Source of the DNA: a virus
Taxonomy: Duplodnaviria > Caudoviricetes
Direction: 5' to 3' (one strand)
Length of the DNA: 64,000 nucleotides
IMG/VR virus record: IMGVR_UViG_3300005611_000014
Coordinates: 6,080 to 70,079 of that record
Below the pieces are notes generated by a model that was given only the letters and a program-made list of their open reading frames with translations, was not told the DNA's origin and made no database searches. Positions within the stretch are counted from its first letter, which is position 1. The number at the start of each line of letters is the position of its first letter. A program made the translations under genes and the position numbers. This document shows, piece by piece, positions 27,597 to 43,793 of this stretch.

Positions 27597-29732
27597 TTAT
27601 TTAAGTTTAGATATGCTTTCTTTTAGTGCAGCTAATGCCATATTAGCTCTTGCTTGTTCCCCTTGCTTTTCTAACTCCCTAGCTTGAGTGGTTCCTGTAC
27701 GTTGTTCTACAAAATCCAAATCAAGTTTATCTGCGGTACTGCTTAACATTTTCTGTTTAGCTTGCTCTGTTCCTGCTTTAGTTTGGTTAAGTATAGCAGT
27801 AGATTGAGACTCGTAAGCTTTTCCTGATATTTGCTGTATCTGTGCTTTAAGTAATTCTACTTCTAGCATAGCTTTTTCCTGCTCTATAGGATCAGGTTGA
27901 GGCTGGTACATTTTAATCTTTTTAGACAACTCTGGCATTTTACGCAAATCTGCTATTTCCGCTAAAACCAGTTGTATCATTTCTAAGCCTAGTGTTTGCC
28001 CGGTAGTTTGTAGCATGAAAGCCAATTGTTCCGCTTTAGCATTATCTGTTTCAGCCGTACTAATAGTCAGTCGTATATCAATAGATCCTGCTAAATCTTC
28101 ACTGTCTATCTGTTCAAACTCTTCATTAGTTATACGTACTACTTCTGGTTCATCTAAAAATACAGCATTCATCGCTGTAAATTGTCTACCTACCTCTATA
28201 ATACCCTCTGCTAAACGTAAAAGGATTTCTAGGTCACGTTTACTGGTGGCATCAAGTGCACTACGAACACCAGTAGCAGTATTACCTAATGCTCCACCGC
28301 TTATACCATTATGGAAAGCTTTTACTCCGGTAAGTCCTTCTGCTTCGTTGTTTTGGATATTGAGCATATATTCAGCAGAACGAGGAATATCAGCAAACTT
28401 ATGAATAAAGAAAGCTCTTTCAGGATGCGTATTCGGGTTAAATTCATAATCCTCTCCTGCTTTGTACCTTTTAAGGTTTGTGTAATCTAGAGCATCTTTG
28501 GCTACACCTCGTTGACCGTTGGCATTTTTAGCCATTAAATCAACCATACCTCTAGTAACAGCCCCAATTACTTTTTGATTATCTTCAAGTAATTCTCCAT
28601 CAGGCTCTCCATAAACAGAGTCCTCTACAGGAAGATAAGGAACCACAACAAAAGGTAATTTGCCGTGAGGATATGGATTGTCTGCCAAACGAATTAATAC
28701 ATCTCCAACAAAACTAGCAACGATAGGTTTAGTTACGCCTGAACCATCTATATCCCAGTAACCCCAATACTCATGTACTACTATTTTCTTTCTAGGTTTA
28801 TCCTTAAACATAAAGCTAGAAGGATTAGCTAATTCTGTCGTGCTTGCACTAAGAGGAGAAGCGTTATCTATATTTATATATTCCAAGTTTGAATATATAC
28901 CTGCCTCTTGTAAGGCACTTAGTGAAGACTCAAACTGATCAATAATAAAATTAGCTTTTGTATAATCCCCTTCACAAGTTGGATCAATAATAACATTACG
29001 CAGTGGTCTAATTTCAGCAGTAGGATGGTTAGCTATTACCGTTACTTTGTCTACTTCCTGTTCTCCTATTTGTACAGGAATATACGGTACACCGTCTGCC
29101 ATAGATAACTGTATAGCATCTACAACATATTTATCTTGCTTACGTTCAAAAGTAATAGGATCAGCTTGGTAAGCTTGTATTACTTCTTCTAAATACGCTA
29201 TATATTGTTCGTCATCAGTTTCTTCAAACTGGTAAATAGGTTCTATTACCTTCTCTACTTTATCTTTATATACCCAGCCTGTTTTAATAATACTTGTTCC
29301 TTTATTAACAGCACTTCTTACATACTTATTAATAAAAGGTACTTTACGTAATTTATTATTAAACTGGTGATTAAGAACTAATTCATTCTGTTTAGCTGCA
29401 CGTACATCTTCGTAAGTAACAGGATCTGCTTTGAAGATATTAACGCTACTTAAGAAAGGTTCAGATAAAGCAGAGTATCTCCATTCTGCCTGCTTACGTA
29501 TAAGCTTAGGTTGAATAGTGGATTTATTTTTAGGTATTTTTACTTCAGCAGAAAGTGTACCTTTTAAATTTTCTTCCCACTTAACGACTTTAGAAACCAC
29601 GTTACTGTGATCTGCTTCAGCAGAAGTTAAATCTGCTTTTAAATCTGTAAGAGCTGGCGGATTATTCCACCCAGTAGGATGTATCGCAGGAGCTTGCTCT
29701 AACCGTTTATCTTTATTTAAAGGTTTTGACAC
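27597..29732 (-). CDS. Portal protein (N4 gp59-like)
   Basis: PKLIRKQAEWRYSALSEPFL, EYWGYWDIDGSG, LPFVVVPYLPVEDSVYGEPDGELLEDNQKVIGAVTRGMVDLM. Confidence 0.93.
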   Translation of the reverse strand: MSKPLNKDKRLEQAPAIHPTGWNNPPALTDLKADLTSAEADHSNVVSKVVKWEENLKGTLSAEVKIPKNKSTIQPKLIRKQAEWRYSALSEPFLSSVNIFKADPVTYEDVRAAKQNELVLNHQFNNKLRKVPFINKYVRSAVNKGTSIIKTGWVYKDKVEKVIEPIYQFEETDDEQYIAYLEEVIQAYQADPITFERKQDKYVVDAIQLSMADGVPYIPVQIGEQEVDKVTVIANHPTAEIRPLRNVIIDPTCEGDYTKANFIIDQFESSLSALQEAGIYSNLEYINIDNASPLSASTTELANPSSFMFKDKPRKKIVVHEYWGYWDIDGSGVTKPIVASFVGDVLIRLADNPYPHGKLPFVVVPYLPVEDSVYGEPDGELLEDNQKVIGAVTRGMVDLMAKNANGQRGVAKDALDYTNLKRYKAGEDYEFNPNTHPERAFFIHKFADIPRSAEYMLNIQNNEAEGLTGVKAFHNGISGGALGNTATGVRSALDATSKRDLEILLRLAEGIIEVGRQFTAMNAVFLDEPEVVRITNEEFEQIDSEDLAGSIDIRLTISTAETDNAKAEQLAFMLQTTGQTLGLEMIQLVLAEIADLRKMPELSKKIKMYQPQPDPIEQEKAMLEVELLKAQIQQISGKAYESQSTAILNQTKAGTEQAKQKMLSSTADKLDLDFVEQRTGTTQARELEKQGEQARANMALAALKESISKLK

Positions 29733-30022
29733 GTTTCACCTACTATTAAATTAACTGTTACGGAATCACTACGAGTAGCAGTAGTATACTCTAATTTGAT
29801 AACTTCTACTCCTTGCGCTAAACCAGTTACTCTAACTCCCACGATAGATTTAAATCCTTTAAGGTTATCGCTAATAATCCCGTTCTCTATGGTAGTTAAA
29901 GCATTTAAAGCAGAAGGTACTAGACTAAGTATATCTTCTCCTTGTGCCCACTCGTATAAGTCTAATGTATACAAGTCGGTTTTACCTATTTTTAAACTCT
30001 TATGCCAAGTAAGTGTATACAT
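29717..30022 (-). CDS. Hypothetical small beta-rich protein at the distal end of the inserted cassette
   Basis: 101-aa ORF overlapping the portal start, with a plausible Ig-like strand pattern. Function not recognised. Confidence 0.55.
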   Translation of the reverse strand: MYTLTWHKSLKIGKTDLYTLDLYEWAQGEDILSLVPSALNALTTIENGIISDNLKGFKSIVGVRVTGLAQGVEVIKLEYTTATRSDSVTVNLIVGETCQNL

Positions 30023-30045
30023 TAAATTGTCCTGATTGACTCATG

Positions 30046-33000
30046 TTAGTACTTTGTCCAACTATTATACTGTAGATGTCTACTTTCTAGCGGTAAGTAT
30101 AGATGATTAAGGGAACTTATAACAACATCAGGTAACTCTATTGTAACTATTACGGTAGCTACAGTAGCCGCAATGGTTTGTACTATTGATGCATCCGTAC
30201 TGCTTATAAAGTCTAAGTATGCGGCAGTACCTGCACCTATAACGTCTGCACTACTGCTATCATTGGCCGCATGTATAGGTATATTCTTATCTGTTTCTAA
30301 ATTTTGACTAGTACTGGTATCTATGGCTGGTACTAAAGTAGCGTAGAGTGTGCCGGGAGATAAGGTAAATGTAACTACTCTTGCTGCACTCACATCTACA
30401 GCAGCATCTAGCAAAATAAGTTGCCCTATGTTAGCAGTAAAAGCCTCACTGTTACCTACTTCTAGTGCAGATGTAAGAGATATGTCTACTGAACCAAGAG
30501 AAGTAATTAAACTTGCTGCAGTACTTGTATCTGTACTTGGGCTTATAGCTCTAACTAAGTCACTAGCTAGATAAGCAGATATGCTAGTTTCTATAGAAGA
30601 ACCAAGATCAACATATAAATCAGCAGGTGCATCTATGATAGTCACACTGGCTGTTCGCGTAACAGTTACGCCATCACCGCGCGTGGCTGTAATAGTAATC
30701 GGATATGTGCCTACTGCTAAGCCCAACATATTATCTACTTCGCTTGTTGCAAATCGTAATACACTTTCTGTTGCCGTAACTACACTACCTTCCCCGGACG
30801 TAATGGCTACATTGCCACCAGTGTTTGTAACATTGTAAGTATCTGCGGCTAGGCCATTAATGTAATAGTTGACCGCATCTGTATTAATTAATCCGGAAAT
30901 ATCAAAGCTAAGACCGGTTAAAGGAACAAGCGGATTTTTGGCAAAAACTAAACAGTGCCAAGCGTTCTGTAGGTGTAGCAGTACCCCTTGTGCATTTACG
31001 CCAGCATCAAAGAGAACTTCGGTATCGGGTACAACCACTGCACCTGTGTCGCCAACAGCCAGAACAGAAACAAAGGCATTCTCTATTGCAGGAGTAACCG
31101 CTTCTGTTTCAATATGCCATTTACGTTGATTGCTCGGCATATCAGCTTGAGAAGCGCCGCTCCATAGCATTGATTCATCTACAATCGTATGGGTTAGTGA
31201 CGCATCAGATAGCATCTTAAGTTGCATCTCTTGACCTGCATCAGAGGCAACATAATATCCATTTACCAAAGTAGGCTGTGTTTGGAAATGTTGAATGTGC
31301 TTAACAAAGCGAGTGTAGTTACCTCCCCCATGTGCTTTGTATTGAACCAGATCAGCAACTTGTGTTGGGTCAGTGATGGTGTGGTCATAAACTATCAACA
31401 TATCCTGACCGATTAAGGCCAATTGACGTGTTACTAAATCTGCATAGTTTGTGCCATAGTACCCTGACATATTGTAGGCGTCTGCTGCTTCCCAAGCATG
31501 GAAAATATAGTCCGTACTTTGGTGAACGTGTGTCAGTGTGCCATTATCAACCGGGCGAAGTGTCGGACTTGAACGTCCATCTTCTGCGTTTTCAATTAAT
31601 AAGGTATTGGCTGCTGGCCCCGAATCCGCCGTATTTCCATAACCTATTGCTGCTTTACTTAACCAAACACCTTTTCTGGCTAAGTTAAAAGAAAGCACAT
31701 CGGATGGTTCCTGATGATCAACTTTAAAAGCTGCCGCCCAACCAAAATACTGAGTAGCATCGTTTGTCCAGTCTGTTCTGGCCGCAATAAAGCCCGTTCC
31801 GTCTGCCGCCCAAATGGTATCTTTATTTAGAGCAGAAGGTGATTGTCCTGCCTCCCCTGTCTCGAATAACAAACGGAAGATGCCGGTATAGCTTGAGTCA
31901 TTTGGCGGTGTAATTTGAGATAACCAATAGTTACCTAGCGCTTTTGTATCAGCATCGGTACTTGCGGTCATTAGAAACAACATGGTGTTGTAGTATCGTG
32001 CATCAGACAGATCAACATAATCTGACATGGCTTGCACTTGACCGTAAGCGTTTAAGTCCGTGAAGCCAGCTAAGGTATTGTGAACAATGCCCTCAACTAA
32101 CTCGGTAATTATTGTCTGAGAATAGGTATCGCTAAGGTTCTCACGTCCGACTAAATACAGCTCACCAACATGCTGCATAGTGCCGATAGAGTAATCACGT
32201 CCTTCGCCCCACATACCGCCATCAAAGACACCATTAAGAATGCCATCAAATAGCTCTACCTGAGTAAAGTCGGCAATCCATGTAGAAAGCGTAGGTGCAT
32301 AAGCATCCCCCTCACTTTCCAAAATTGCCAAAATCATATTGAGATTACCTGCTAAGCTAGTTACCTCATCAGTGTCTTCTGACCTGAATGAACCACTATT
32401 ATCAACATAATCTATCCAATACTGTGCCCATGTAACGAAGTTAGCAATAATGGTGGTACGTTCACCAGAGGTAAACTCATCACGCATCCAACTGTAGAAC
32501 ATACAGGCCCAAACACAGCCTGTTCTAAAACCATTACGTGAAGTATATCCACCTAAGTCGCCACCGACCCAGCCCCCTGCACCACCATTGTTATATTCGT
32601 CATTAAACAGACTAATACCGAAATCACGATAAGCCGTGTTTGGAGTAAGCGTGTGTGCTAAGGCGTACGCACAGGCGAACTCCCACCGATTGTAAGGTGA
32701 GCCATTAAGGTAAGTATCACAGCGTCCAATTAAATTGTCGTATATGGTTGAATCACTAGCTACCCGTGACTCAATGGCAGCTAGTCGGGTGCTCGATAAG
32801 AACAACTTACTATTTAATGTACCAACTACGTCTGCTGTTGGCCCCCACTCACCATCGTATATTCGGTATGTCGCTGAACCCCCTGCGCCTGATAACGCTT
32901 CGACTAAACCTGTCGCAATATCAAACGTCACATTGTTTATATCTGTGACATGTACCCACTGACCTACGCTCGCACCATCATTAGCATAAACACCGTCTGG

Positions 33001-33894
33001 GTGAATAGATGTAATCTGCCCATAGAGATGCCCTGCCTCTGGTTGAATTTGGATTGTCGTAGTGCCCGTACTCGTCCCATCATTTAAAGTTAAAACAATA
33101 TCACTCAAAAACGTATGAATTGGGTAAGGGTCTGTAGTTTTAAATGTAACTGGATCAATTACATCTACAGTAACTACCGAACCTGTATCGCTGACAATAT
33201 TCCAATCACCTGCCGTACTGCTTACCGATGTAATTGCGCCTGTAGCATTACTGTATGTAATTGCAAGTTGGCTGTTGGCTGTTGGCGTAGCGGTAGAAAT
33301 GCTATTTACAGTTAAGGATGCAACTGTAGATGTGCTAACACTATTTACATAAAAACCAACCTGGTTAAACTCTATTTCGCCCGTTACGTTTGCAGGGGTA
33401 TCGTAGTGCGTTGTTGTTCCTGTTGGCTCTTGCCCTGTGCCAACAGATGAACCGTTTAAGAATAATTCCCATGCGCCTGAACTGTTTCGAGTAACGCGAA
33501 AAATGTTGGCTGTGTTATTTAAAGTAATTGAAGCATCTGCTGGGCCAATAGTATTCTGAAAAGAGCCATAATTTACGTCTACAAATGACACGTTAAAGGA
33601 CGCACCGGTTCTATCGCCACCTGACGCCTGACCAGAGTTTACTCTAATTCGGCATCGAGGATGTGCCGTTAAACGAGGCAACTCTATAAACAAATTTTGA
33701 TAGTCTGATTGCGCTTCAGCTTCAAAGGTAAAGTCAAGGGCTGCGAAATCGTCATTATTAAGTGTTCCAGAAATCGCTACGAGAGTCCCTGTACTTAAAT
33801 CGACGCGATCATTGGTATCGTCTAGGGTGGCTGCACTTCCACCCCATCTTGAGTCTAAACTGGCTTGATCAAATAAATCTATAAAAGTAGGCAT
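30046..33894 (-). CDS. Multidomain protein: LamG-like N-terminus, heparinase II/III-like (alpha/alpha toroid plus beta-sandwich) polysaccharide lyase fold, C-terminal DTSTA repeats
   Basis: ACMFYSWMRDEFTSGERTTI, GGMWGEGRDY, GTGFIAARTDW, DHQEPSDVLSFNLARKGVWL and AANTLLI match the heparinase II/III-like pattern by eye. Confidence 0.65.
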   Translation of the reverse strand: MPTFIDLFDQASLDSRWGGSAATLDDTNDRVDLSTGTLVAISGTLNNDDFAALDFTFEAEAQSDYQNLFIELPRLTAHPRCRIRVNSGQASGGDRTGASFNVSFVDVNYGSFQNTIGPADASITLNNTANIFRVTRNSSGAWELFLNGSSVGTGQEPTGTTTHYDTPANVTGEIEFNQVGFYVNSVSTSTVASLTVNSISTATPTANSQLAITYSNATGAITSVSSTAGDWNIVSDTGSVVTVDVIDPVTFKTTDPYPIHTFLSDIVLTLNDGTSTGTTTIQIQPEAGHLYGQITSIHPDGVYANDGASVGQWVHVTDINNVTFDIATGLVEALSGAGGSATYRIYDGEWGPTADVVGTLNSKLFLSSTRLAAIESRVASDSTIYDNLIGRCDTYLNGSPYNRWEFACAYALAHTLTPNTAYRDFGISLFNDEYNNGGAGGWVGGDLGGYTSRNGFRTGCVWACMFYSWMRDEFTSGERTTIIANFVTWAQYWIDYVDNSGSFRSEDTDEVTSLAGNLNMILAILESEGDAYAPTLSTWIADFTQVELFDGILNGVFDGGMWGEGRDYSIGTMQHVGELYLVGRENLSDTYSQTIITELVEGIVHNTLAGFTDLNAYGQVQAMSDYVDLSDARYYNTMLFLMTASTDADTKALGNYWLSQITPPNDSSYTGIFRLLFETGEAGQSPSALNKDTIWAADGTGFIAARTDWTNDATQYFGWAAAFKVDHQEPSDVLSFNLARKGVWLSKAAIGYGNTADSGPAANTLLIENAEDGRSSPTLRPVDNGTLTHVHQSTDYIFHAWEAADAYNMSGYYGTNYADLVTRQLALIGQDMLIVYDHTITDPTQVADLVQYKAHGGGNYTRFVKHIQHFQTQPTLVNGYYVASDAGQEMQLKMLSDASLTHTIVDESMLWSGASQADMPSNQRKWHIETEAVTPAIENAFVSVLAVGDTGAVVVPDTEVLFDAGVNAQGVLLHLQNAWHCLVFAKNPLVPLTGLSFDISGLINTDAVNYYINGLAADTYNVTNTGGNVAITSGEGSVVTATESVLRFATSEVDNMLGLAVGTYPITITATRGDGVTVTRTASVTIIDAPADLYVDLGSSIETSISAYLASDLVRAISPSTDTSTAASLITSLGSVDISLTSALEVGNSEAFTANIGQLILLDAAVDVSAARVVTFTLSPGTLYATLVPAIDTSTSQNLETDKNIPIHAANDSSSADVIGAGTAAYLDFISSTDASIVQTIAATVATVIVTIELPDVVISSLNHLYLPLESRHLQYNSWTKY

Positions 33895-36800
33895 TATGAA
33901 TCCTCCCTTAAAATTCTATTCCAAGTCCTTACTGAGTTTGAGCGATTTTGCCAGTTCCAGAGTCTTGGTGTGTTAGATATAGCGGCACATGTAGCATTCG
34001 TATATCCTGTAATAATATTATTTATTCTATTCAATAGCTTTGCTTTATTGGTAGAATTTGACTCGAATTTATAGGCTAAAGCTAAAGGCAGTACAGTTTC
34101 AATGTTATGACTATCTGAATACCAAGGATACCAATCGTCACTTGCTAATGTAGCATCATCAGCATAAGCACTGGTGAAATAGACCAAATCTGTACTCGTT
34201 GAGCCTGTTGTATTACATCCATTTGCTCTAGGATTAATACCAACAAAAGCAGTTTTTCTATCGTAAGTTGCGCCATTAAAAGTTGTAGTGAATCCATGAT
34301 TTTCTATAGCATTACCTAATAATCTAAGCATTTCAGGCACATCAGTATTCCCCGTTACGTGGTACGCTTGCCACAAAAAGTCTGCTATATTTTCAGACAT
34401 CCAAGCCGAGAATGCCCTATCATTTGTATCACCAAGAGCTTGAGAGCCTTCACTTTCCGCACCTTCATGGACATTAAAGCTATGCGTAAAACCACCGCTT
34501 TTAGGAGTCCAACCATTTGCAATATCCCAAGCTTTTTCTGTTTGTTGCATATCCTTTAAAGAAGCAATTCGCTCATTTAGATGGCTTAAGATAGTCACAT
34601 CGCCTGTAATTTCATAAGCAACGACCTCAGCCAAGCCAGCTAGACCTGCACCACGCTCTGTGAAGCCTTCTGTCTCTGAATTATACAAATCTCTAGTGCC
34701 ATATTGATTCCAACCTAAGTCAGCTTGTAATGCCATTTCATTAATTAGACTGTTATCCCATTGTGATTTATCACCTACTAAAGCTAGAGCCAATTTAGCT
34801 TGTTGTGGTGCTATGTATTTACCATCAGCACAAGACGTTGATCCATAAGTCCAACAACCATCACCTCCTGCTGCTGTAGGTGCTGTACCATCATTTCTGA
34901 CATAAGTGAAGTAGAACTGTTTAGATAGAAAAGCTTCTTTTAAAAACTTCACATCGCCTGTAGTCATATAGGCTTTAAACATTGCACTTGATCTATCAAA
35001 CAACCAGTTCGCATTTGTTGACGTTGAAAAGTTTAACCCACCAGCCCAATTATCAAATTGGTCTGATTGAAAAGTTCTATGTGAATCTGGACTTACAGGG
35101 GCTGGGTCAAAAGGTGGTACTATTTCACTATCAGCAAGATACTGAGTGTCATGTAGGGCGAATATTCTAGGATATAAATGATTATTCTTATCTGCTCCTG
35201 CTGCTACCCAACCATTTGAATGTGGCTGCTCTGTGAGTCTAGCTGTACTGAAACCAGTGTCATCAATAGTGACTGTTACATTACCACCAGTCATATCAAC
35301 ATTTTGAAGTTGAATGGTCGCTGATCGAATAGAGTTATCAGACCACCACGTTAATCCGTCTTCAACATAAGCTGCTACTTCTGAGCCACCAATACTAACT
35401 TTGATTTCATCTAAGCTAGTTACTTCGCTTTCTGCGAAAGGCAATGCAAAGGTTACAAGCTCTGTGGCTGTTGGTGTTACTGCACTATCAGCAACTAATG
35501 TCATCGTTGTACTTACATCATTTGTAGCGACATAAGTGGCTGGTGGTTTAGTCGCACCTTCGTCAATCGTTTGCACTTGTCCTGTAGCGTATATTGCTAC
35601 GTTTCGATCCACTGATACATTAGTGAATTGAACTAATGCACCCCCGTTAGGTAACTGCATATCAATATCAACTAAAGCATTATTACCCAAACCACAGTGT
35701 TCATGCGTAGCACCATATTGTTCAGCAACATATATTTCACGAGTACAAAGAATGTTTGGTGTTCCAGCATCTTTAACTGTTACGCGAGTGTGAAGACCTT
35801 CATAAGTAGGCGCACCTCTAACAACAAAGCCAAGCCAATTATTACTATAGCTGCCAGTATTTCTCCAAACTGCAATAGTGTCTTTATTACTTGATCGTTG
35901 AGCGTTTGAGCTGATTAAATCAAGCAAACCATCATTATCATAATCACCATGCGCTACAACAGTCTTAGATGCACCTCCACTAGCAGCAACTCTCCCATCT
36001 GTCGTACTTAGTACGTTATCACAAGCAATAGTTTCCTTAGTCCAATTTCCTGTGCCCCCATTCATGATCAAACCACAAGGCGCATCAAAACCACCTCCGG
36101 TTAGCCAATCCGCACGTATGTCATCTAAACCATCATTGTTAAAATCCCCTACGCCTAAACCAGCATAAGTAGTTTGATACGTGAGAGAGTTCAGGCTTAA
36201 ACCAGCTAATTCAGTAGTTGATACATCAGTAAATACACCTGATCCATTGTTTTGTAATAACCATATACCATCTCCATCTAAATCAGCATCAGCTAGGTCA
36301 ATTGCATTATTGCCACCTTTCTCAACACGTATCTTGAAGATGTCCATATCCCCATCATTGTCATAGTCAATTGGTACTTGTTGATGTGGGTTGCTGTGTT
36401 GCGCGTCATCTGTTGAGTATGACGTATCAAACATTGAAGCACTTGCGGTGAAGTTTCCTTCAACGCCTGCTTGCATTCCACCCGCACTACCAAACCAGAT
36501 AATGTTAAGCTGTGGATTAACGATGTCAGGATATGAGTCATTGTTTGCATCGAATACAAGAGAAGTAGACCAGGCTCGCGTTAAGTTTGGCTCATTCAAT
36601 GTCGCCCAATCCGGTGTCCAAGCTACTGTCTTCTCCGGCCAATCATATATGGCCCCGTAGTCGCTCGCATCAACCGGCTTATTGAGTACATTATCATTAA
36701 AACCAACACCGACTAGAGGCGCACCAATCAACTCAATATCACCATCACCATCAAAATCAATAGGTAGGCAGCGATCTACTGTATATAAGCAACCTGTAGT

Positions 36801-37565
36801 CCCTGTGTAGGTTCCATCTCCGTCATACGTTGCAGCCAATGAAGGGTTGCCATCTACATCACCACCTAAAATATCAACATCGTTATCACCATCCAAATCA
36901 AACAAGAGTGTCCAGCTTGTTATGCGTCTATTCGCTGGGCCTGTTGCTGAATAATCATTATCTAAATAGGTATATGTACCCTGACAAACGCCACCAACAT
37001 TATCTTGAATATATATACCATCAGGATCATCAGTAGCGTGTGAAGTGATGAAGAAATCAAGACACATATCATTATTTAAATGTGCAACGTCAGCTTCAAA
37101 AGGAGCCACTACTGGACTTTGGCCTACTTCTAAATCTGGCATAATAGACAGCGTTGTCTCAGCAAATGCAATCGCACCACCTGCGCTATTAACATAGACT
37201 TGTCGAGTTGCTGTATCTGTTAATGATCCACTATCAGTACACGTATATGTAGCAACATAAGTGCCCGATGAACTCATGTTCAGAGATGGGCTAAATGTTG
37301 GTGCGGGAACTGTAATTGCGCCGTCTTCGCTATCCGTACACGTTGCGCCAAGCTCGCTGTAAGTATCACCTACTGTGTAAGTGACATTAGAGCCATTCAA
37401 TATGATCACTGGAGGTTGGTTACTTTGAGGCTCAGGTATACATGAACCATGCCCAAATTTGCCATTTCCACAATCCACATTGAATACAAATATGTCATTC
37501 TGCGGAATAACCACCGCAAGCGCAGGAATCGAAAGAAGCATAAAAAGCAAAGTGCGTAAAATCAT
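33894..37565 (-). CDS. Signal-peptide protein: DUF5011-type Ig domain, FG-GAP/VCBS beta-propeller, ASPIC/UnbV domain, and a PcRGLX/YetA-like barrel plus (alpha/alpha) barrel
   Basis: MILRTLLFMLLSIPALA signal. PPVIILNG...TYSELGATCTDSEDG. Seven DxDxDGxxD-type repeats. NNWLGFVVRG...HCGLG. VTFALPFAE...WSDNSIRS. Helical C-terminal domain (MFKAYMTTGDVKFLKEA). Confidence 0.7.
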   Translation of the reverse strand: MILRTLLFMLLSIPALAVVIPQNDIFVFNVDCGNGKFGHGSCIPEPQSNQPPVIILNGSNVTYTVGDTYSELGATCTDSEDGAITVPAPTFSPSLNMSSSGTYVATYTCTDSGSLTDTATRQVYVNSAGGAIAFAETTLSIMPDLEVGQSPVVAPFEADVAHLNNDMCLDFFITSHATDDPDGIYIQDNVGGVCQGTYTYLDNDYSATGPANRRITSWTLLFDLDGDNDVDILGGDVDGNPSLAATYDGDGTYTGTTGCLYTVDRCLPIDFDGDGDIELIGAPLVGVGFNDNVLNKPVDASDYGAIYDWPEKTVAWTPDWATLNEPNLTRAWSTSLVFDANNDSYPDIVNPQLNIIWFGSAGGMQAGVEGNFTASASMFDTSYSTDDAQHSNPHQQVPIDYDNDGDMDIFKIRVEKGGNNAIDLADADLDGDGIWLLQNNGSGVFTDVSTTELAGLSLNSLTYQTTYAGLGVGDFNNDGLDDIRADWLTGGGFDAPCGLIMNGGTGNWTKETIACDNVLSTTDGRVAASGGASKTVVAHGDYDNDGLLDLISSNAQRSSNKDTIAVWRNTGSYSNNWLGFVVRGAPTYEGLHTRVTVKDAGTPNILCTREIYVAEQYGATHEHCGLGNNALVDIDMQLPNGGALVQFTNVSVDRNVAIYATGQVQTIDEGATKPPATYVATNDVSTTMTLVADSAVTPTATELVTFALPFAESEVTSLDEIKVSIGGSEVAAYVEDGLTWWSDNSIRSATIQLQNVDMTGGNVTVTIDDTGFSTARLTEQPHSNGWVAAGADKNNHLYPRIFALHDTQYLADSEIVPPFDPAPVSPDSHRTFQSDQFDNWAGGLNFSTSTNANWLFDRSSAMFKAYMTTGDVKFLKEAFLSKQFYFTYVRNDGTAPTAAGGDGCWTYGSTSCADGKYIAPQQAKLALALVGDKSQWDNSLINEMALQADLGWNQYGTRDLYNSETEGFTERGAGLAGLAEVVAYEITGDVTILSHLNERIASLKDMQQTEKAWDIANGWTPKSGGFTHSFNVHEGAESEGSQALGDTNDRAFSAWMSENIADFLWQAYHVTGNTDVPEMLRLLGNAIENHGFTTTFNGATYDRKTAFVGINPRANGCNTTGSTSTDLVYFTSAYADDATLASDDWYPWYSDSHNIETVLPLALAYKFESNSTNKAKLLNRINNIITGYTNATCAAISNTPRLWNWQNRSNSVRTWNRILREDS

Positions 37566-37966
37566 TACTGTTGTACTCCGAAAGTGATTTCAGGAGTGAT
37601 GACTGTGGCATCTAAAGCAAGATCACGGTTTGTAATTTGATCAGACACTAACAACAGATTTGAGTCATCATATAATGCTACCCACAAATCTACTGAGCCA
37701 CCTGATACGGCTACGTCTATTGCGCTATTGTGTTCGAGACTTGGGATAGTTAAGTTTCTACTATTAGCATTGATGCCGTTACTTAACGTAATCGTTCCGC
37801 TATTAATAGTTAAAGGGGCACTGATACGTTTTCCTCCTGCGCCACTCAAAGAGGTACAATCAGCCAATGAAGTAGGTTCGGTTTGAAAAATAGCGTAATT
37901 GACCGTAGCAGCACTAATCGTGACTAAACCATTATCAATTACATGGGCAGATATTTTCGTGGTCAT
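37565..37966 (-). CDS. Hypothetical cassette protein (probably virion-associated)
   Basis: Likely starts at ATG 37966 (MTTKISAHVIDNGL) behind GAGAGGAC; the track start at 37996 is upstream. TAATG coupling to the next gene. Confidence 0.6.
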   Translation of the reverse strand: MTTKISAHVIDNGLVTISAATVNYAIFQTEPTSLADCTSLSGAGGKRISAPLTINSGTITLSNGINANSRNLTIPSLEHNSAIDVAVSGGSVDLWVALYDDSNLLLVSDQITNRDLALDATVITPEITFGVQQ

Positions 37967-37968
37967 AT

Positions 37969-38589
37969 TTAAGTCCTCTCTACAGCTTGCATACAAAAGT
38001 AGGTGGACACATGTGTATACACAGAAGCCGTACCTTCATTGGTATCGGAAACAAAAACCTCGAAATAATCCCCAGGTATGACATCCAATATCGGGGATAC
38101 TAGGCATACTGATTTTTCAGAGTCACCGTCTTCTCCTGATTCCCAGCCAGCAGCTACGCCTTTACCTGTTTCTCCGTTCTTCCTGATACTAAACAGTTTC
38201 GTGACTTCCGATGGTAAAAGAACCGAAGTACATGAGAAAGTAAGTTGCACCCGTGTAACATTGGCGGGGACAGTTAATCTGGTAGGATTGCCTACTGACC
38301 AAATACTATCTGTATCTATACTCACAGAACTCCATGCTAAAGGTAGCCCTCCGCTATTACCTGTTAAATCAATATCTAGGGTAGTCGCCCCAGCATTTAG
38401 GTGGGTAACAGCACATGTAACGGCATCAGTTACGCGATCATTCGCAGTTTGGCCTAGCAATAAACTTGAAACTTCGTTTAAGGTTACAACTCGCGTATTT
38501 CCACCAGACTCAACAGCGATATAATCAGCACCCGTTAAGGTATATGCACCTTGAGTCCCTTGATGTACAGTAAAAGAAGACGCACTCAT
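37969..38589 (-). CDS. C1q/TNF-like jelly-roll domain protein, paralogue of 39773-40396
   Basis: LPLAWSSVSIDTDSIW...TRLTVPANVTRVQLT and LVSPILDVIPGDYFEVFV. Confidence 0.55.
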   Translation of the reverse strand: MSASSFTVHQGTQGAYTLTGADYIAVESGGNTRVVTLNEVSSLLLGQTANDRVTDAVTCAVTHLNAGATTLDIDLTGNSGGLPLAWSSVSIDTDSIWSVGNPTRLTVPANVTRVQLTFSCTSVLLPSEVTKLFSIRKNGETGKGVAAGWESGEDGDSEKSVCLVSPILDVIPGDYFEVFVSDTNEGTASVYTHVSTYFCMQAVERT

Positions 38590-39776
38590 AATGGTATAAG
38601 CCCCGTAATTGGTTCAAATAAAATTTCAGGATCAAGATAAGCTAAACGATTAGTAGAACCTACCATGTTATAGTTAGCAGGAGTCACAATAGCCGGTGTA
38701 CTATTAGCATGTAATTTATCAATCACAGCGCGTATCTGAGTACGGGAAGTCAATCTTTGATAACCTTGAAGCATACAAGCAATGACTCCTGCGGCATAAG
38801 GTGAGGCGAAACTTGTACCCGACCACACCAGATAACCCCCGTAATACTTCATATATACACTCTGTCCGGGCGCATAAACATCCATAAGATCGCCAACCCC
38901 TGTAGCAAAAGCATCGAACAGCATAGGGTTATCTGCCGCACTCGAAGCACCTATAACTAAGTTATCAGGATCGGCATGACCAGGGTAAGGTAAACTATTA
39001 TTAGAAGCGTTATGGTTTTCCCGCCAATTACCTGCGGCTATACAACATATAATACCTGCATCATTTAGCGCCTCAAACCCTGCCTGTATGCCTGCATTTG
39101 GTGTACCAGAAGCGGATAGGTTAAATACGGCAGGTCGATTTGTAGCAGATCGACTATTATAATGAGCCAACGTTTGGTTAATAGCATTGATGACTAGCTC
39201 ATCTAAAGCAGTTCTATCACTAGGGTCATGCGTACAGTCCCAAATTAATGCTTTTCTGGCTAAACCTATCGTGTTACCCGCAGCGCAAGATGCTACCGAT
39301 GTTCCGTGTTTGGATAGGAAAGTAGGAGACCACCCGTCTGTACCGGGTACGACCCCTACACGCCCATTAAACTCATCTGGATCATCATATACACCTGAAT
39401 CACATATATATATATCTACCCCTTCGCCATCCCTACGAGACTCAAAGTTAGTAGTAATATTCTTAATAGGATGGTTTACACCAAATGGGTTTCTACGTCT
39501 AACTAAACGTGCTAAACCCCAAGCCCCTTGTTGTAAATCAACCGTATTCGCATCAACAATAATAGGAGAATTAACATAGGATAAATGCAATTTCCCGCAA
39601 GGGTCTATACTGGATATATAAGGTAAAGCAGCCAAAGGGAAATTATCTAACTCATGGGTAGTTATAAGGAACAATTTTGGAATATTTTCATATTCTTTAA
39701 AGCCAATAGACTTAGTATTAAGCTCCTTAATGAAGTCCTGTCTGTGCGTTTTATCTGTGAGTTTTACATAGATCAT
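38586..39776 (-). CDS. Subtilisin-like serine protease (peptidase S8) with a short N-terminal prodomain-like region
   Basis: Complete triad: IYICDSGV (Asp), KHGTSVASCAAG (His), SGTSFASPYAAG (Ser). Oxyanion Asn in IAAGN. Also FNLSASG and MDVYAPG. Confidence 0.92.
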   Translation of the reverse strand: MIYVKLTDKTHRQDFIKELNTKSIGFKEYENIPKLFLITTHELDNFPLAALPYISSIDPCGKLHLSYVNSPIIVDANTVDLQQGAWGLARLVRRRNPFGVNHPIKNITTNFESRRDGEGVDIYICDSGVYDDPDEFNGRVGVVPGTDGWSPTFLSKHGTSVASCAAGNTIGLARKALIWDCTHDPSDRTALDELVINAINQTLAHYNSRSATNRPAVFNLSASGTPNAGIQAGFEALNDAGIICCIAAGNWRENHNASNNSLPYPGHADPDNLVIGASSAADNPMLFDAFATGVGDLMDVYAPGQSVYMKYYGGYLVWSGTSFASPYAAGVIACMLQGYQRLTSRTQIRAVIDKLHANSTPAIVTPANYNMVGSTNRLAYLDPEILFEPITGLIPL

Positions 39777-40396
39777 ATATCTATCTGCTCCAATACCCGC
39801 ATACTAAAATGATTCCCTGTATTAGTAAAAATGGCTAAAGCCCTATTGTTTATGTTATCTACTGTTACCTCAAAATAGTCACCTTCTTGTACGGAGAGTA
39901 CAGGACTAACGAGTAACGTACTTAAACCAGAACAGCGAGAGGAAACAACCCCTTTCGTGTATTCACCGTTTTTTGTAATAGAAAACAGATAATCGAATGC
40001 GCCACCTGATATAGCCAAACAAGCAGTAAGTTGAACCTTTGTAGCCCCTCTAGGGACATTTAATCTTTTTGCTGCAACACCAGACCAGCAATTAGCTGTA
40101 TCTGTTATAACTTTACCCCATTGCAAAGGAATGCACGTTATAATCCCGTATGCAAAATAAGAAACAGAGGCATCCGTAGGATGTTCATTCGCTCGTTGTA
40201 GATTTAAAGATGCACCTTTAAAACCTTCAGAGGGTTGGACTATTTTAGTTTGACCATTAAGTAGCTTGTTCACGTCTGATAATGTCGCCACACATTCGCC
40301 AGAACCATCAGCGTACTCAACAGGTAGAATATCACTAAGGCTTGGTGAGAATACAGGCTGCGCCTGCCTAATAGTAGTTAAAGCCTTGTTTGTCAT
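39773..40396 (-). CDS. C1q/TNF-like jelly-roll domain protein, paralogue of 37969-38589
   Basis: IPLQWGKVITDTANCW...KRLNVPRGATKVQLT and LVSPVLSVQEGDYFEVTV. Confidence 0.55.
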   Translation of the reverse strand: MTNKALTTIRQAQPVFSPSLSDILPVEYADGSGECVATLSDVNKLLNGQTKIVQPSEGFKGASLNLQRANEHPTDASVSYFAYGIITCIPLQWGKVITDTANCWSGVAAKRLNVPRGATKVQLTACLAISGGAFDYLFSITKNGEYTKGVVSSRCSGLSTLLVSPVLSVQEGDYFEVTVDNINNRALAIFTNTGNHFSMRVLEQIDI

Positions 40397-41781
40397 AGAA
40401 TTTTAAACCCATCTGTACCAGTTATTTGCATATCTCCTGCTAATAACCAAGCTTGTGTTACAGTTAGTTCGTCCAGTTGTGATCTACCTAAACGGGAACC
40501 AAATGGAGCAATTCGCCACGAACCATTTTTGTTAATGGGGTAGTAAGTAGTACCGTTTATAGTTAATTCTATCTGTGCAGTACTGTCATTAAGTAAGCCG
40601 AACAAGTCAGTATTGTCATCCCCTGTTACAAGGTCAGGGAATATAATCTCGAATACATCGAGCGTCCCACCACCGGATTCCACACTAGATGCTAAGTCTG
40701 GGAGCGCGTTCGTAATATGCGCACTTGTCCATGCAGACCATTCGCTCGCGTCTGCGCCATTCTTACCTCGAACGCGCCATCTGAAATCAGTATGAGCAGG
40801 CCATGTTAAAGCCATTTGAGATTGTGATAGGTTAGTAAACGATGTCACCACATTGGTAATCAGATTTTCTACTTCCACGTCCCATAAATCAGGTGCTACT
40901 TCTCCCCCACCTCCTCCTGTAAGAGAAGCAGTTAAACTACTTACAGTACCCGTATCTATAGCTACAGTGAGAGAAAGATCAACACTACCTTCTAAAGAGA
41001 CAGTTATTGCTTCAGCAACACCTGTATCGCTCGTATTTATTAATGTGGCAGTAACAGGAGTGTTATCTGCAAGGCTCTGGAAACTTTGCCAGCCTGTCCA
41101 TGCACTTGTTTTACCTGCATCAGCACCTTGTACCCGCCACTCATAATCTGTGGATTGGTTTAAACCAGTTAAGGTATAAAAGGTATCCGTAATTCCATTG
41201 ACCGCCGTAGCACCTTGACCTACAACACGCCATTCCAGATTGTAGGTTGAAGGTGTTAAGGGCGTAGCAACATGTACTTCACGGATTGCCGTAGCTGTAT
41301 TACCTGCGGCATCTGTTACTTGATACTGTATTTGATAAATACCTTGGGTATTATTATCAACAGTACCCGAAGTACTAATAGAACCTGTTAAGTCGCCATC
41401 GGTATCATCTGTAGCTGTTGCACCAAGTTCTGTATACGTATCACCTATCGGTAAAAGATAAGGATTAGCGCCTGTTATAGTAATAACCGGATCAGTAGTA
41501 TCCGTAACAACCTGAGCCGTTAATGTACCTGCCGTACTGGTATCCGTGGCGGCTGTTAAAGAAACAAATTGATCCGTTGCAGCAGACGTAGTAAAAGTAG
41601 TCCATGCTGACCACGCAGACCATGATAATGCACCACTTGTATCATCTACTTGACGTACACGCCATTGATGTTCTTGACTACCTGCTAAACCAGTAACAGC
41701 ATACTCGGTAGGACTAATGCCCGTATACCGAGTTACGCTGCCGCCTGTTTCTTTTATCTCAACGTGATACGTATAGGCCAT
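40393..41781 (-). CDS. Ig/FN3 repeat protein: three truncated FN3-like repeats with WSxW motifs, one DUF5011-type Ig domain, and DTSTA repeats
   Basis: HQWRVRQ...WSAWSAWTTF, YEWRVQG...SAWTGWQSF, FRWRVRG...SEWSAWTS. Also DTTDPVITITGANPYLLPIGDTYTELGATATDDTDGDL. Confidence 0.8.
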   Translation of the reverse strand: MAYTYHVEIKETGGSVTRYTGISPTEYAVTGLAGSQEHQWRVRQVDDTSGALSWSAWSAWTTFTTSAATDQFVSLTAATDTSTAGTLTAQVVTDTTDPVITITGANPYLLPIGDTYTELGATATDDTDGDLTGSISTSGTVDNNTQGIYQIQYQVTDAAGNTATAIREVHVATPLTPSTYNLEWRVVGQGATAVNGITDTFYTLTGLNQSTDYEWRVQGADAGKTSAWTGWQSFQSLADNTPVTATLINTSDTGVAEAITVSLEGSVDLSLTVAIDTGTVSSLTASLTGGGGGEVAPDLWDVEVENLITNVVTSFTNLSQSQMALTWPAHTDFRWRVRGKNGADASEWSAWTSAHITNALPDLASSVESGGGTLDVFEIIFPDLVTGDDNTDLFGLLNDSTAQIELTINGTTYYPINKNGSWRIAPFGSRLGRSQLDELTVTQAWLLAGDMQITGTDGFKIL

Positions 41782-41784
41782 CTA

Positions 41785-42516
41785 TCAATCCCAGTTAAGC
41801 AACGCGCCACTCGATGTGATGCTTTGAGTTTGAAGATTGGTAGGTATGCTAACGGTTTGTTGAGCAGGTGCACTTGTAGGAGCAGCATCACCATTTGTAC
41901 CAATAGCCAAAATATTAAATAACATTTTCGATTGGTTCTGACCGTATTTAATAGCTGCAGGGTAGCCAGTTGCAGGCTGAGAGCCGTTGGTTATGGCTTC
42001 AAAGTTCCAAGTCCCCGGTTCATTTGAAATCAAGTCACTTGCATGTTGCCAAAAACGACCATAAACGTTATTACCTGAAATCCTACCTCTGAATCCAGTG
42101 TGATTAGCGAGATTGACATCGGGCGGTATCGTATCAGTAGTTGTTGTTGTATAGGTTCCCCACTTGTTTCGAGTAACCACACCTCCTAGGCTTTGATACA
42201 AAATAGCCCAAGACGGAGTAAAGCCTATAGAAAGTGAAGGCCGAAACGACATACCAATTGAAACTTGACTATCTACGCTTGATGCTGCGATTTGCTGTAA
42301 CATCAATATTTCACAATCAGCAACAGGAGCAATGTCATTGAATGCTACTTGTGCGTGATTACCGCTATTCACACTACTCTGGAAAAACTTACTACCGCCT
42401 ATATCTACTACAGATAAGGCAGCAGCACCATTAAGATACAAGGTGTAGTCGTAACCTAACGTTTCAATGTCGGTAGTAACTGCAAAATCTTCCGCATTAA
42501 GCCAGTACTGAGCCAT
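41785..42516 (-). CDS. Beta-sandwich (lectin-like) protein ending in the first strands of an FN3 domain
   Basis: Beta-rich body with FRGRISGNNVYGRFW...EPGTW. C-terminus PTNLQTQSITSSGALLNWD. Confidence 0.55.
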   Translation of the reverse strand: MAQYWLNAEDFAVTTDIETLGYDYTLYLNGAAALSVVDIGGSKFFQSSVNSGNHAQVAFNDIAPVADCEILMLQQIAASSVDSQVSIGMSFRPSLSIGFTPSWAILYQSLGGVVTRNKWGTYTTTTTDTIPPDVNLANHTGFRGRISGNNVYGRFWQHASDLISNEPGTWNFEAITNGSQPATGYPAAIKYGQNQSKMLFNILAIGTNGDAAPTSAPAQQTVSIPTNLQTQSITSSGALLNWD

Positions 42517-42518
42517 AA

Positions 42519-42989
42519 TTAGCTACCTGTATAGAATGTGCCTGCATTAATATTTAAGTTATTGCCGTTAGTGGTTACTGAAATATCATGAGCAGTTAAT
42601 GGAATAAGTGTACTATCTGCTCCTGCTACATCAGGCGCATAACATAAGATAGCTTTACTTAGTGTATTATCTCCTGCGCCACCATCTCCTGCAGAAGCAA
42701 TCTGCAAAGCAGGTATAGCGGAATACTGAGTGTCTGTATTGTTATCTACAGTAGGTGCAGAAAGATCTGCATCAGTTAATACTATACGGGCGTAGTTTGT
42801 AAAATCTGCTTCGACACTTGATCCAGCTAAAATAGCAGATAGTGTTGCAAGATCTTGAAGCACCAAATCTGTTGCAGTAGTTTTAAGTAATACAACTATA
42901 ATACCGCTAGTTGCAGGATCGTTTGCTACAACACGATCTACGTAAGAGTTAACGCGACCTTTTGCAACATTAAATGTAATATTTGCCAT
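42519..42989 (-). CDS. Conserved phage hypothetical protein (MANITFNVAKGRV family, probably virion-associated)
   Basis: MANITFNVAKGRV...EADFTNYARIVLT...DSTLIPLTAHDISVTTNGNNL resembles a family I recall from tail regions of unrelated phages; not verified by search. Confidence 0.55.
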   Translation of the reverse strand: MANITFNVAKGRVNSYVDRVVANDPATSGIIVVLLKTTATDLVLQDLATLSAILAGSSVEADFTNYARIVLTDADLSAPTVDNNTDTQYSAIPALQIASAGDGGAGDNTLSKAILCYAPDVAGADSTLIPLTAHDISVTTNGNNLNINAGTFYTGS

Positions 42990-43051: not shown

Positions 43052-43537
43052 TTATTTTCTTTTTAAAGCTTTATATTTAGTCTTAAGTAACCCTATCATA
43101 TTTTTTTCTTTATAGGCTTCTAAAAACTGTTGCCTTGGTGCTGCTTTATCAGGTAAAGCCAAATGAACCCATGAATTAAACTCAAGTATACACTGATCTA
43201 CTTCTTTACTAAGTTTACTGCTTTTTATAAAGATAGCTAACTCGTATGGAGTTATACCTGTAGCTGTTATGTCTACAGCTAACCCTCGTAAGTGTGCAGA
43301 GTTACGTGCACCACCTAATATACGATTTAATTTTTTACTCCTAAAGCCGCTACTTATCTGTATATACACTTCCCTGTTATAGTAGTTACATAAACTATTA
43401 CGTAAATGCTGTAAAAAGAAAGCTAACTTAATAATATTAGTTGTTTGTGTAGTATTAGGGCTATTATTTATATTGTGCTTGATAGCAGTACGGGAGTCAG
43501 TAAACTCCTTCTTTGTGAAATTTGTAGTTATTCGCAT
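43052..43537 (-). CDS. Endolysin, peptidase M15 (M15_3, Zn-dependent)
   Basis: NFTKKEF, ISSGFRSKKLNRILGGARNSAHLRGLAVDI (His and Asp Zn ligands), and ILEFNSWVHLA. Confidence 0.9.
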   Translation of the reverse strand: MRITTNFTKKEFTDSRTAIKHNINNSPNTTQTTNIIKLAFFLQHLRNSLCNYYNREVYIQISSGFRSKKLNRILGGARNSAHLRGLAVDITATGITPYELAIFIKSSKLSKEVDQCILEFNSWVHLALPDKAAPRQQFLEAYKEKNMIGLLKTKYKALKRK

Positions 43538-43550
43538 TTAGCTGATTCCA

Positions 43551-43793
43551 TTAAGGGATAAATAAATATTTTACTCCACACTCATTTAAACCCCAACCGT
43601 ACTCTCGGTAAGGGATAGAGCTTCTATGTTCGCAGAATGTACTAAATCTACTCATCTTATATTCCCCGCCTAGTATGCCTATTGGATTTGGGGCGTAAAA
43701 TTCTGGCGCATCTTGTTTCTCTAGGTGCATAGATACACCTCCGTAAAAGGTGCAGCCTTGAAGCAATACTATCAGGAGTAATATTTTTTTCAT
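43551..43793 (-). CDS. Small lipoprotein
   Basis: MKKILLLIVLLQGC lipobox, followed by amphipathic beta-strands and a terminal KYLFIP. Confidence 0.7.
   Translation of the reverse strand: MKKILLLIVLLQGCTFYGGVSMHLEKQDAPEFYAPNPIGILGGEYKMSRFSTFCEHRSSIPYREYGWGLNECGVKYLFIP

Follow-up and report, generated by a model that had tools for sequence, protein, structure and literature searches.

What do ten tightly packed genes between the portal and the endolysin do for an N4-like phage? The question is raised by a stretch of 64 kb (the window) out of the 70,079-base IMG/VR virus record IMGVR_UViG_3300005611_000014, whose source is an uncultured N4-like phage (Schitoviridae), probably from a marine habitat. 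Ten co-oriented open reading frames (ORFs) on the minus strand occupy positions 29717-42989 of the window, between an N4-type portal gene and an M15 endolysin gene. From the endolysin to the portal, their products have 156, 243, 462, 207, 396, 206, 133, 1223, 1282 and 101 amino acids (aa), and we name them by these lengths. A preliminary description of this DNA had reported the ten genes, as we find them, and had taken them for one self-assembling system.

We consider it on balance probable that the block is a mosaic cargo of separately mobile sub-modules, dealing with the outer layers of the host, and not one appendage. The claim of a single self-assembling system is not supported by the comparison with other phages. 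Parts of the block occur there separately, and the Sec signal and Cys pair of the 1223-aa product are conserved, so that cytoplasmic assembly of this enzyme onto the virion is hard to reconcile with the data.

A predicted exported enzyme shared with other phages

The 1223-aa exoenzyme gene (33894-37565, minus strand) encodes a signal peptide (residues 1-17), a Cys pair, an Ig domain (57-125), an FG-GAP region (about 130-680) and an enzyme domain (690-1223). Its Pfam matches were PF16403 (Bact_surface_Ig-like) and PF13517 (FG-GAP repeats), and the FG-GAP region is read as a propeller. The signal peptide (37515-37565) reads as one of Sec type, with a hydrophobic core and an Ala-x-Ala site, followed by the Cys pair.

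A full-length homologue, 72.7% identical over 1204 residues, was found in an HK97-type phage (L095), with the gene order NinB, holin, 1223-aa homologue, two Ig-rich genes, terminase, HK97-type portal, S78 protease and capsid. A third phage-like contig (L096) has a homologue of 44% identity beside a SASA-esterase/LamG protein. All three phage copies carry an AxA-type signal peptide and the downstream Cys pair, and bacterial relatives carry signal or lipoprotein peptides. This conserved Sec signal argues that the enzyme is exported rather than virion-borne.

The domain order and the neighbours of these relatives vary. In L095 (L095:8870-17705), a contig of HK97/lambdoid type, the homologue is coupled to a He_PIG protein and a HYR/Ig-rich protein in the interval between holin and terminase, a typical accessory ("moron") position. 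In bacteria (Oleiphilus, Cellvibrionaceae, Colwellia; L099-L105, L109, for example L100:5529-11999) the enzyme domain precedes the FG-GAP region, and the three phage copies have the opposite order. In one Oleiphilus genome the enzyme is present in two tandem copies, and the FG-GAP region is 74% identical to that of the phage.

The enzyme domain itself (33897-35498; 534 residues) had 218 relatives at E <= 0.001 among 1.84 billion representatives. Its AlphaFold2 (AF2) model, with 25 relatives in the alignment, had a predicted local distance difference test score (pLDDT) of 92.3. An exhaustive structural search ranked first the PL26 exo-rhamnogalacturonan lyase 5xq3 (Z 17.2), whose alignment took in 408 residues and extended over model residues 1-534. 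Behind it came GH105/GH88 hydrolases and sugar epimerases, whose matches were confined to the (alpha/alpha)6 barrel. With Foldseek, many six-hairpin enzymes were retrieved, all at low TM-scores. As modelled, the domain is thus a six-hairpin glycan-active enzyme, a RIFT-barrel plus (alpha/alpha)6 protein of PL26-like fold, either lyase or hydrolase.

The PL26 enzyme PcRGLX (5xq3) and the 1223-aa domain share an N-terminal beta barrel and an (alpha/alpha)6 barrel at about 11% identity. The phage protein ends after the alpha barrel and is without the C-terminal beta-sandwich that we take to be the third domain of PcRGLX. Relatives of the domain had weak Pfam matches to PcRGLX, GH127 and GH88 (PcRGLX_1st in 3 of 26, E 2.7e-4); the 1223-aa protein itself had no PcRGLX match in Pfam. 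No match was found between the enzyme-domain profile and PDB sequences, and phmmer searches of the 1223-aa and 1282-aa proteins against PDB returned nothing useful.

Two points weigh against this reading of the protein. The signal peptide was read by eye, from a hydrophobic core and an AxA site. The GH105/GH88 scores lay within 1-2 Z units of the PL26 match, itself one of fold level, so that the enzyme may be either a lyase or a hydrolase.

A tblastn search of 50,697 deposited phage genomes gave no match to the enzyme core of either large protein (1282 or 1223 aa); only the short Ig-like domain of the 1223-aa protein was matched, in two Listeria phages. Pattern scans of IMG/VR returned no relatives of the 1282-, 1223-, 462- or 243-aa proteins.

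The export signal bears directly on an alternative in which all ten products form one branched virion appendage, with the enzymes and the protease borne on the tail and the stoichiometry set by translational coupling. Such an appendage would suit the tight coupling of the genes and the C1q-like tips, which match solved phage fibre tips; the 156-aa gene adjoins fibre-like genes elsewhere, the 1282-aa protein has added terminal regions in place of the bacterial signal peptide, and branched enzyme-bearing fibres exist in Schitoviridae (G7C, Possum; PMC9569702). We nevertheless regard it as quite unlikely, given that a Sec signal and a Cys pair are present on the 1223-aa protein in three phage backbones, that the L095 copy sits with lysis genes, away from the tail genes, that the sub-modules are separate in other phages, and that no known N-terminal anchor domain was found in Pfam, PHROG or the phage comparison. 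We keep to a mosaic cargo as the better account of these genes.

A heparinase II/III-like protein

The 1282-aa protein (30046-33894, minus strand) consists of a phage-specific N-terminal region of 360 residues, a lyase-like core (residues 360-1010; 30865-32817) and a C-terminal region of about 270 residues. The core had 14 homologues at 30-39% identity, and all of those looked up were bacterial. PF07940 (Hepar_II_III_C) was matched by 5 of the 15 family members, and the phage protein by itself had no Pfam match. The family profile matched heparinase II (PL21, PDB 3e80; E 8.4e-5) and the oligo-alginate lyase Atu3025 (PL15, PDB 3afl; E 0.0036), both weakly. It aligned to the motif regions of both, namely the "HxH..D" and "HNT" stretches of heparinase II and the "EGxxY" stretch of Atu3025. 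The phage copy keeps the Tyr of "EGxxY" and the first His of "HxH". The family differs from Atu3025 in having Asp in place of His311, which we assume to be catalytic in that enzyme.

The term "glycan-lyase-like", which the preliminary description had applied to both large proteins, holds at the level of superfamily or fold: a heparinase II/PL15 profile for the 1282-aa protein and a PL26-like fold for the 1223-aa protein.

Several features of the phage copy speak against an enzyme. Alone among the 15 members, its core has Ala for the His of "HNT", and the second His of "HxH" is replaced by Glu, with a one-residue insertion; the altered motif residues are at positions 368-370 and 403 of the core stretch 30865-32817. 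These two His residues presumably bind zinc in heparinase II. The 1282-aa protein itself, moreover, was below Pfam significance. With both motif His residues altered, it could be a binding protein instead of an enzyme. Judged from these motifs, catalysis is likely, not assured. In four of the bacterial members, the second His of "HxH" is replaced by Gln.

The bacterial relatives bear signal or lipoprotein peptides, and the 1282-aa protein is without a signal peptide. Its N-terminal 360 residues had no match in deposited phages. Its C-terminal 270 residues or so look, by eye, like an Ig-like segment followed by Ser/Thr/Ala-rich repeats.

Relatives in exopolysaccharide loci

What might the two enzymes cut? 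Relatives of both proteins, P0007 and P0008 for the 1282-aa core and P0020 and P0033 for the 1223-aa enzyme domain, were found within bacterial exopolysaccharide biosynthesis loci that carry glycosyltransferases, a Wzx flippase, a Wzy polymerase, UDP-sugar dehydrogenases, epimerases, a polysaccharide deacetylase and the exosortase EpsH. By gene content, both enzyme families sit in Wzx/Wzy-exosortase loci of marine gammaproteobacteria. In one exosortase-type locus (L145:9001-13534) a gene of the 1282 family stands immediately before a distant member of the 1223-aa enzyme-domain family; this adjacency suggests that both families act on the same polymer. In two further contexts such a setting was not seen.

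Biosynthesis loci often hold an enzyme that trims their own product, as AlgL does in the alginate locus. From this precedent and the position of the relatives, the most likely substrate of both phage enzymes would be the host's own capsule or slime. A biofilm, mucus or particle matrix as the target, both for its polysaccharide and for its protein, had been proposed for the block; a matrix or exopolysaccharide target is plausible in view of the bacterial relatives of both enzymes in exopolysaccharide loci. The block does encode two polysaccharide-active enzyme folds and an intact protease.

These relatives also bear on an explanation in which the whole block is foreign to the virion and encodes late soluble enzymes and lectin-like proteins, exported or released by lysis, that dissolve the slime around the burst cell or destroy receptors on debris. 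The origin of both enzyme families in bacterial exopolysaccharide loci would fit it, as would the signal peptide of the 1223-aa protein, the lysis genes adjoining here and in L095, and the failure to detect either enzyme core in the 50,697 deposited phage genomes. We hold it unlikely, since many phages have the C1q-like domain within bona fide tail proteins, the stalk-plus-tip shape of the model is that of a fibre, and 9 of the 10 proteins carry no export signal. A mosaic cargo, in which exported and fibre-like products would stand side by side, remains the preferred reading.

A subtilase between two C1q/TNF-like fibre tips

The 396-aa S8 pro-subtilase (38586-39776, minus strand) matched PF00082 with 68.4 bits (cut-off 21.8) and the protease family phrog_3677, and has no signal peptide. 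It had been called intact, and rightly so: in an alignment with the orthologues of phage Mallos and locus L007, residues D126, H157 and S322 and the oxyanion residue N250 were invariant in the three phage orthologues. Its first 70 or so residues have, by eye, the look of a beta-alpha-beta propeptide and are kept in the orthologues; no Pfam I9 match was returned.

The subtilase gene is bracketed by two genes for short fibre proteins, of 206 aa (37969-38589, minus strand) and 207 aa (39773-40396, minus strand, with ATGA overlaps on both sides). The 206-aa protein has an N-terminal strand-helix stalk and a C1q/TNF-like jelly-roll tip (about residues 55-206), and matched the tail protein family phrog_11660; the 207-aa protein is its paralogue with the same kind of tip (33% identity, BLASTP E 2e-26). 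They had been described as C1q-like paralogues. Paralogy and a C1q/TNF fold are supported; membership of a Pfam family (C1q, PF00386) is not, even at E <= 10. NCBIfam had no match to either protein.

An AF2 model of the 206-aa protein, made with 11 IMG/VR relatives, had a moderate mean pLDDT of 64; most of residues 100-206 were at 65-88, and the first 20 residues were disordered. Its VIA matches were EDA-A1 (Z 16.3, root-mean-square deviation 2.4, 137 aligned), the C1q domain of Caprin-2 (Z 15.3), C1QL1 (Z 14.0), BclA of Bacillus (Z 13.9), the tail of cyanophage A4 (Z 13.8) and the short-fibre CBD of A-1(L) (Z 13.1). Other solved phage tips matched were PRD1 P5 and TM4 gp23, and in BFVD the model matched many predicted viral tail-fibre and C1q proteins. 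According to the model, the 206- and 207-aa proteins fold like the C1q/TNF jelly-roll, though they are not members at the level of sequence, and from this we infer that they are short trimeric fibres. A word-based homologue search with the 206-aa protein returned the query only, which is weak evidence.

Tail proteins of several other phages have the tip domain, often in tandem: Xanthomonas phage Mallos, Variovorax phage V45iii and phages of Caulobacter, cyanobacteria and Staphylococcus. One tail protein may hold two or three copies in a row (L008:5494-6786; L006:4449-5363), which is unusual, since such a domain normally caps a trimeric fibre as a single copy.

Directly downstream of the tip gene, Mallos (gp44/gp45), V45iii and L007 each have an S8 orthologue of 29-32% identity over nearly its full length; the two genes overlap by four bases in Mallos and in L007. 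The closest comparison is with Mallos (NC_073030), in which the tail protein gp44 carries the tip and the S8/S53 protease gp45 is 31% identical to the phage subtilase over 94% of its length. Mallos differs in being a siphovirus with a single fibre gene, whose 498-aa product has two tandem tips, whereas here two paralogues bracket the protease. Mallos gp44/gp45 are annotated only, with no function reported, and none was found for the S8/C1q-tip unit in the literature searched. Mallos, V45iii and L007 may be one phage family, and the pairing is thus shown in at least two lineages, possibly only two. Most loci with the tip domain had no S8 gene within reach (L009, L011-L013, Staphylococcus phage Alsa_2), so the protease is no general requirement of the tip domain; L008 ends about 360 bases past the tip match and is uninformative on S8.

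The subtilase might be a dedicated maturation protease, acting in trans on the flanking C1q-tip fibres in a role like that of the auto-processing S74 chaperone, with no attack on host protein. This would agree with the fibre-then-S8 gene order in Mallos, V45iii and L007 and the 4-base overlap in two of them, with the disordered first 20 residues of the 206-aa model, and with the missing signal peptide, by which the enzyme would be active where the fibres fold. It is possible, yet doubtful: most C1q-like loci are without S8 within reach (L009, L011-L013; Alsa_2), and the 206- and 207-aa proteins end at the last jelly-roll strand, leaving no C-terminal piece to remove. This judgement covers the role of the subtilase only and is compatible both with a mosaic cargo and with a single appendage.

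Ig/FN3 proteins and an apparently split FN3 unit

The 462-aa Ig/FN3-repeat protein (40393-41781, minus strand) matched PF16403 (79.6 bits) and PF00041 fn3 (27.6 bits), both above cut-off, in agreement with the Ig/FN3 repeat proteins noted in the preliminary description. The Ig domains of this protein and of the 1223-aa protein share 43% identity. The 243-aa protein upstream (41785-42516, minus strand) had no Pfam (E <= 10), PHROG or NCBIfam match and no relatives, and its last 20 or so residues resemble FN3 strands A-B.

The two ORFs meet at an in-frame junction, TGA TAG ATG (41779-41787, minus strand). By sequence and read-through translation, an FN3-like unit appears to be split over this junction, with its first strands on one side and the later strands on the other. 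No tRNA, and hence no suppressor tRNA, was found in the 70-kb record, and a word-based search returned no longer, fused forms of the 243-aa protein, which is weak evidence. The junction may reflect a split gene whose products are joined by strand complementation, a recent break or a coincidence.

Strand C likewise seems to be the starting point of the two other FN3-like repeats in the 462-aa protein. A kinship of the 243-aa protein with the N-terminus of the 1282-aa protein was considered and dropped, as BLASTP found no similarity.

Strand complementation is one element of a further explanation, in which the block would be a kit for dissolving a floc or biofilm matrix of the exosortase/PEP-CTERM type. 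The kit would combine a Sec-exported enzyme, a cytoplasmic lyase, a subtilase acting on PEP-CTERM proteins and C1q-like trimers as lectin-type targeting, with parts clipped together by the split FN3 unit of the 243- and 462-aa proteins. We think this improbable as a whole. In the mosaic cargo that we prefer, the 243- and 462-aa proteins would be one sub-module among four.

Packing and composition of the block

Five start/stop overlaps had been reported in the block, and all five were found: of one base at 33894 and 37565, and of four bases (ATGA) at 38586, 39773 and 40393. The overlap at 37565 presumes an ATG start at 37966 for the 133-aa gene, a TTG at 37996 being less likely. The remaining junctions within 37966-42519 are gaps of 2-3 bases. 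The outer junctions are looser, with 23 bases at 30022/30046 and 62 bases at 42989/43052. Among the core late genes, gaps are of 2-78 bases and 1 of 10 junctions is an overlap (portal/101-aa gene), so that the block is packed more tightly than its neighbours.

The raised GC content that had been reported from samples was borne out: 0.40-0.45 in the block and 0.32-0.37 in most of the window. The GC content at third codon positions (GC3) averaged 0.304 in the eight genes of 30046-42516 and 0.244 in 18 other late genes (Mann-Whitney p = 0.0046). The outermost genes of the block are core-like in GC3 (0.178 for the 156-aa gene and 0.235 for the 101-aa gene). As the raised GC3 is confined to the eight inner genes, the acquired DNA is probably 30046-42516. 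Promoter- and terminator-like sites were no commoner than in shuffled sequence, and no intergenic terminator-like site was found. A megablast search of the phage collection with the whole block gave no match.

The same phage sequence is carried by the European Nucleotide Archive (ENA) contig k141_181293 (L004; 85,143 bases), 100% identical over 23.8 kb. This contig exceeds the 70-kb IMG/VR record by 15 kb, and the surplus may be a terminal repeat, a concatemer or flank. It is probably the same assembly; to the detriment of our reading, it therefore gives no independent proof that the block is contiguous with the phage.

Could the assembly have produced a chimera here, by fusing bacterial DNA with a phage contig? 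The raised GC and GC3 could be so explained, the closest relatives of both enzyme cores are bacterial, the 85-kb contig is no independent assembly, and a look for sequencing runs turned up none. Yet the ten genes are co-oriented with the late operon, tightly packed and free of intergenic terminator-like sites; the block contains phage-type genes (C1q tips, a phage S8 family, phrog_26662); the closest full-length relatives of the 1223-aa protein are in other phages; and the GC3 is intermediate, not bacterial. We consider a chimera highly improbable, and a cargo of the phage itself is the reading followed here.

The phage and its cargo site

The assignment to the N4-like phages is based on the virion RNA polymerase gene, a 3355-aa ORF at 8114-18181 (phrog_2206, E = 0, 1075 bits), and on gene order. 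When compared with N4 and LUZ7, the order of the gp59-type portal, gp56-type capsid and gp67-, gp68- and gp69-like genes is kept (phrog_1216, 1357, 2125, 38, 2109), and a terminase gene is also present. The minus strand holds all the late genes, which implies that transcription starts on the side of the terminase gene, at 51.8 kb, and proceeds towards the polymerase gene, at 8.1 kb. The portal (27597-29732, minus strand), of the SU10/N4 type (N4 gp59-type), matched PF23899 with 433 bits and phrog_1216. Its identity to the portals of the closest deposited phages, LUZ7 among them, is about 50%, and in a comparison with 80 IMG/VR loci it does not exceed 55%; the lineage is therefore distant. As listed, the portal ORF begins at a GTG and shares 16 bases (29717-29732) with the end of the 101-aa gene, and the true start of the portal may lie farther in.

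On the other flank of the block are the M15 endolysin gene (43052-43537), a gene for a lipoprotein resembling an o-spanin (43551-43793) and a gene for a 1890-aa fibre-like protein with tail and tail-fibre PHROG matches (43794-49466), all on the minus strand. This large fibre, already noted in the preliminary description as separate, lies outside the block, and the block is additional to it.

In the N4 record, spanin, endolysin and holin directly follow the portal, as had been stated. An IMG/VR neighbourhood comparison of 80 N4-like loci found in none of them a relative of either enzyme, of the subtilase, of the C1q paralogues, of the Ig/FN3 proteins or of the genes for 101 and 133 aa. Where the gp67-like gene and the portal were both within reach, they lie 0.02-5.5 kb apart, with the sole exception of L072 (9.6 kb); here the distance is 19.7 kb. 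The block is unusual for Schitoviridae. No BLAST similarity was found between any block protein and the N4 gp60-gp66 or LUZ7 regions.

Another N4-like locus (L082:2525-9956) has different genes in this place: endolysin and portal enclose, in this order, an 88-aa ORF, genes for 993 aa, for a homologue of the 156-aa protein and for 550 aa, and several small ORFs. From this we read the gap between endolysin and portal as a recurrent cargo site, with the 156-aa gene as its resident. The fibre gene upstream of the endolysin in L082 is collagen-like.

The 156-aa protein (42519-42989, minus strand) belongs to phrog_26662 (E 1.8e-18). It has homologues in the N4-like loci L082, between the 993-aa and 550-aa genes, and L092, and a relative adjoins a "minor tail protein" of Streptomyces phage Hiyaa. 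Pfam and NCBIfam gave a match of chance level only (EmrE, E 0.11). The gene probably encodes a resident small fibre-associated protein of N4-like phages and is outside the acquired block. The two other small genes, of no known family, encode the 101-aa protein (29717-30022, minus strand), whose gene overlaps the annotated portal start, and the 133-aa protein (37565-37966, minus strand), which is called as 133 aa on the ENA contig as well. Neither had a family match in Pfam (to E <= 10), PHROG or NCBIfam. For the earlier label "connector-like", given to the small proteins of the block, the 101- and 133-aa proteins thus yielded no support from family or fold.

How the cargo might work

In the reading that we favour, the block would be an enlarged, late-expressed cargo region in the endolysin-portal gap, aimed at getting through the slime of the host or dissolving it. 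Its first sub-module would be the 243- and 462-aa Ig/FN3 proteins. The second would be the two C1q/TNF-like tips that bracket a presumably active pro-subtilase, shared with Mallos-like siphophages. The third would be the Sec-exported Ig, FG-GAP and PL26-like enzyme, found nearly intact in an HK97-type phage. The fourth would be a heparinase II/III-like core, now stripped of the signal peptide of its bacterial relatives and extended at both ends by phage-specific regions.

Both the C1q-tip fibres and the 1282-aa lyase would be made in the cytoplasm and, either virion-borne or freed at lysis, would bind and cut slime. The 1223-aa enzyme would enter the envelope late in infection, before lysis, and act there as a soluble, receptor-destroying or matrix-loosening enzyme that aids release and spread. 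The subtilase would mature the C1q fibres, or travel along with them to cut surface or matrix protein.

Relation to known systems

Exchangeable, laterally acquired adsorption modules that bear enzymes are described in Schitoviridae, as the branched fibres gp63.1/gp66 of G7C and the deacetylating fibre gp66/gp67 of Possum (PMC9569702). The present phage resembles them in its N4-like backbone, its variable, acquired late genes for host recognition and its polysaccharide-modifying enzymes. The G7C and Possum fibres carry SGNH esterases with tailspike attachment domains, whereas here the folds are of alpha/alpha-type lyases or hydrolases, one of them with an export signal, and no known anchor was found. 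The position differs too, between endolysin and portal and besides a separate 1890-aa fibre. The earlier claim that the system is undescribed consequently holds for the combination of genes, not for the kind of module.

The classical phage depolymerases of capsule and exopolysaccharide are beta-helix tailspikes (reviewed in PMC5380687). The predicted job is the same, to cut the surface polysaccharide of the host. In contrast to those tailspikes, neither large protein matched a beta-helix or a known N-terminal anchor domain in Pfam or PHROG, and the enzyme folds are of the alpha/alpha type.

New here are two alpha/alpha-type enzyme families with an apparent origin in bacterial exopolysaccharide loci, the conservation across phage backbones of an export signal on one of the enzymes, and a subtilase/C1q-tip unit in a podovirus. 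Most of the phage depolymerases known are beta-helix tailspikes of cultured phages that infect clinical bacteria, and the block suggests another route in marine phages. The phage seems to have captured enzymes with which bacteria trim the product of their own slime loci, so that the enzyme would be matched to the slime of the host. The conserved and working-looking export signal raises the question of what a lytic phage gains from placing an enzyme in the envelope ahead of lysis. The subtilase/C1q-tip unit, for its part, is met again in unrelated phages. If active, both enzyme families would be candidates for new CAZy families acting on bacterial exopolysaccharides.

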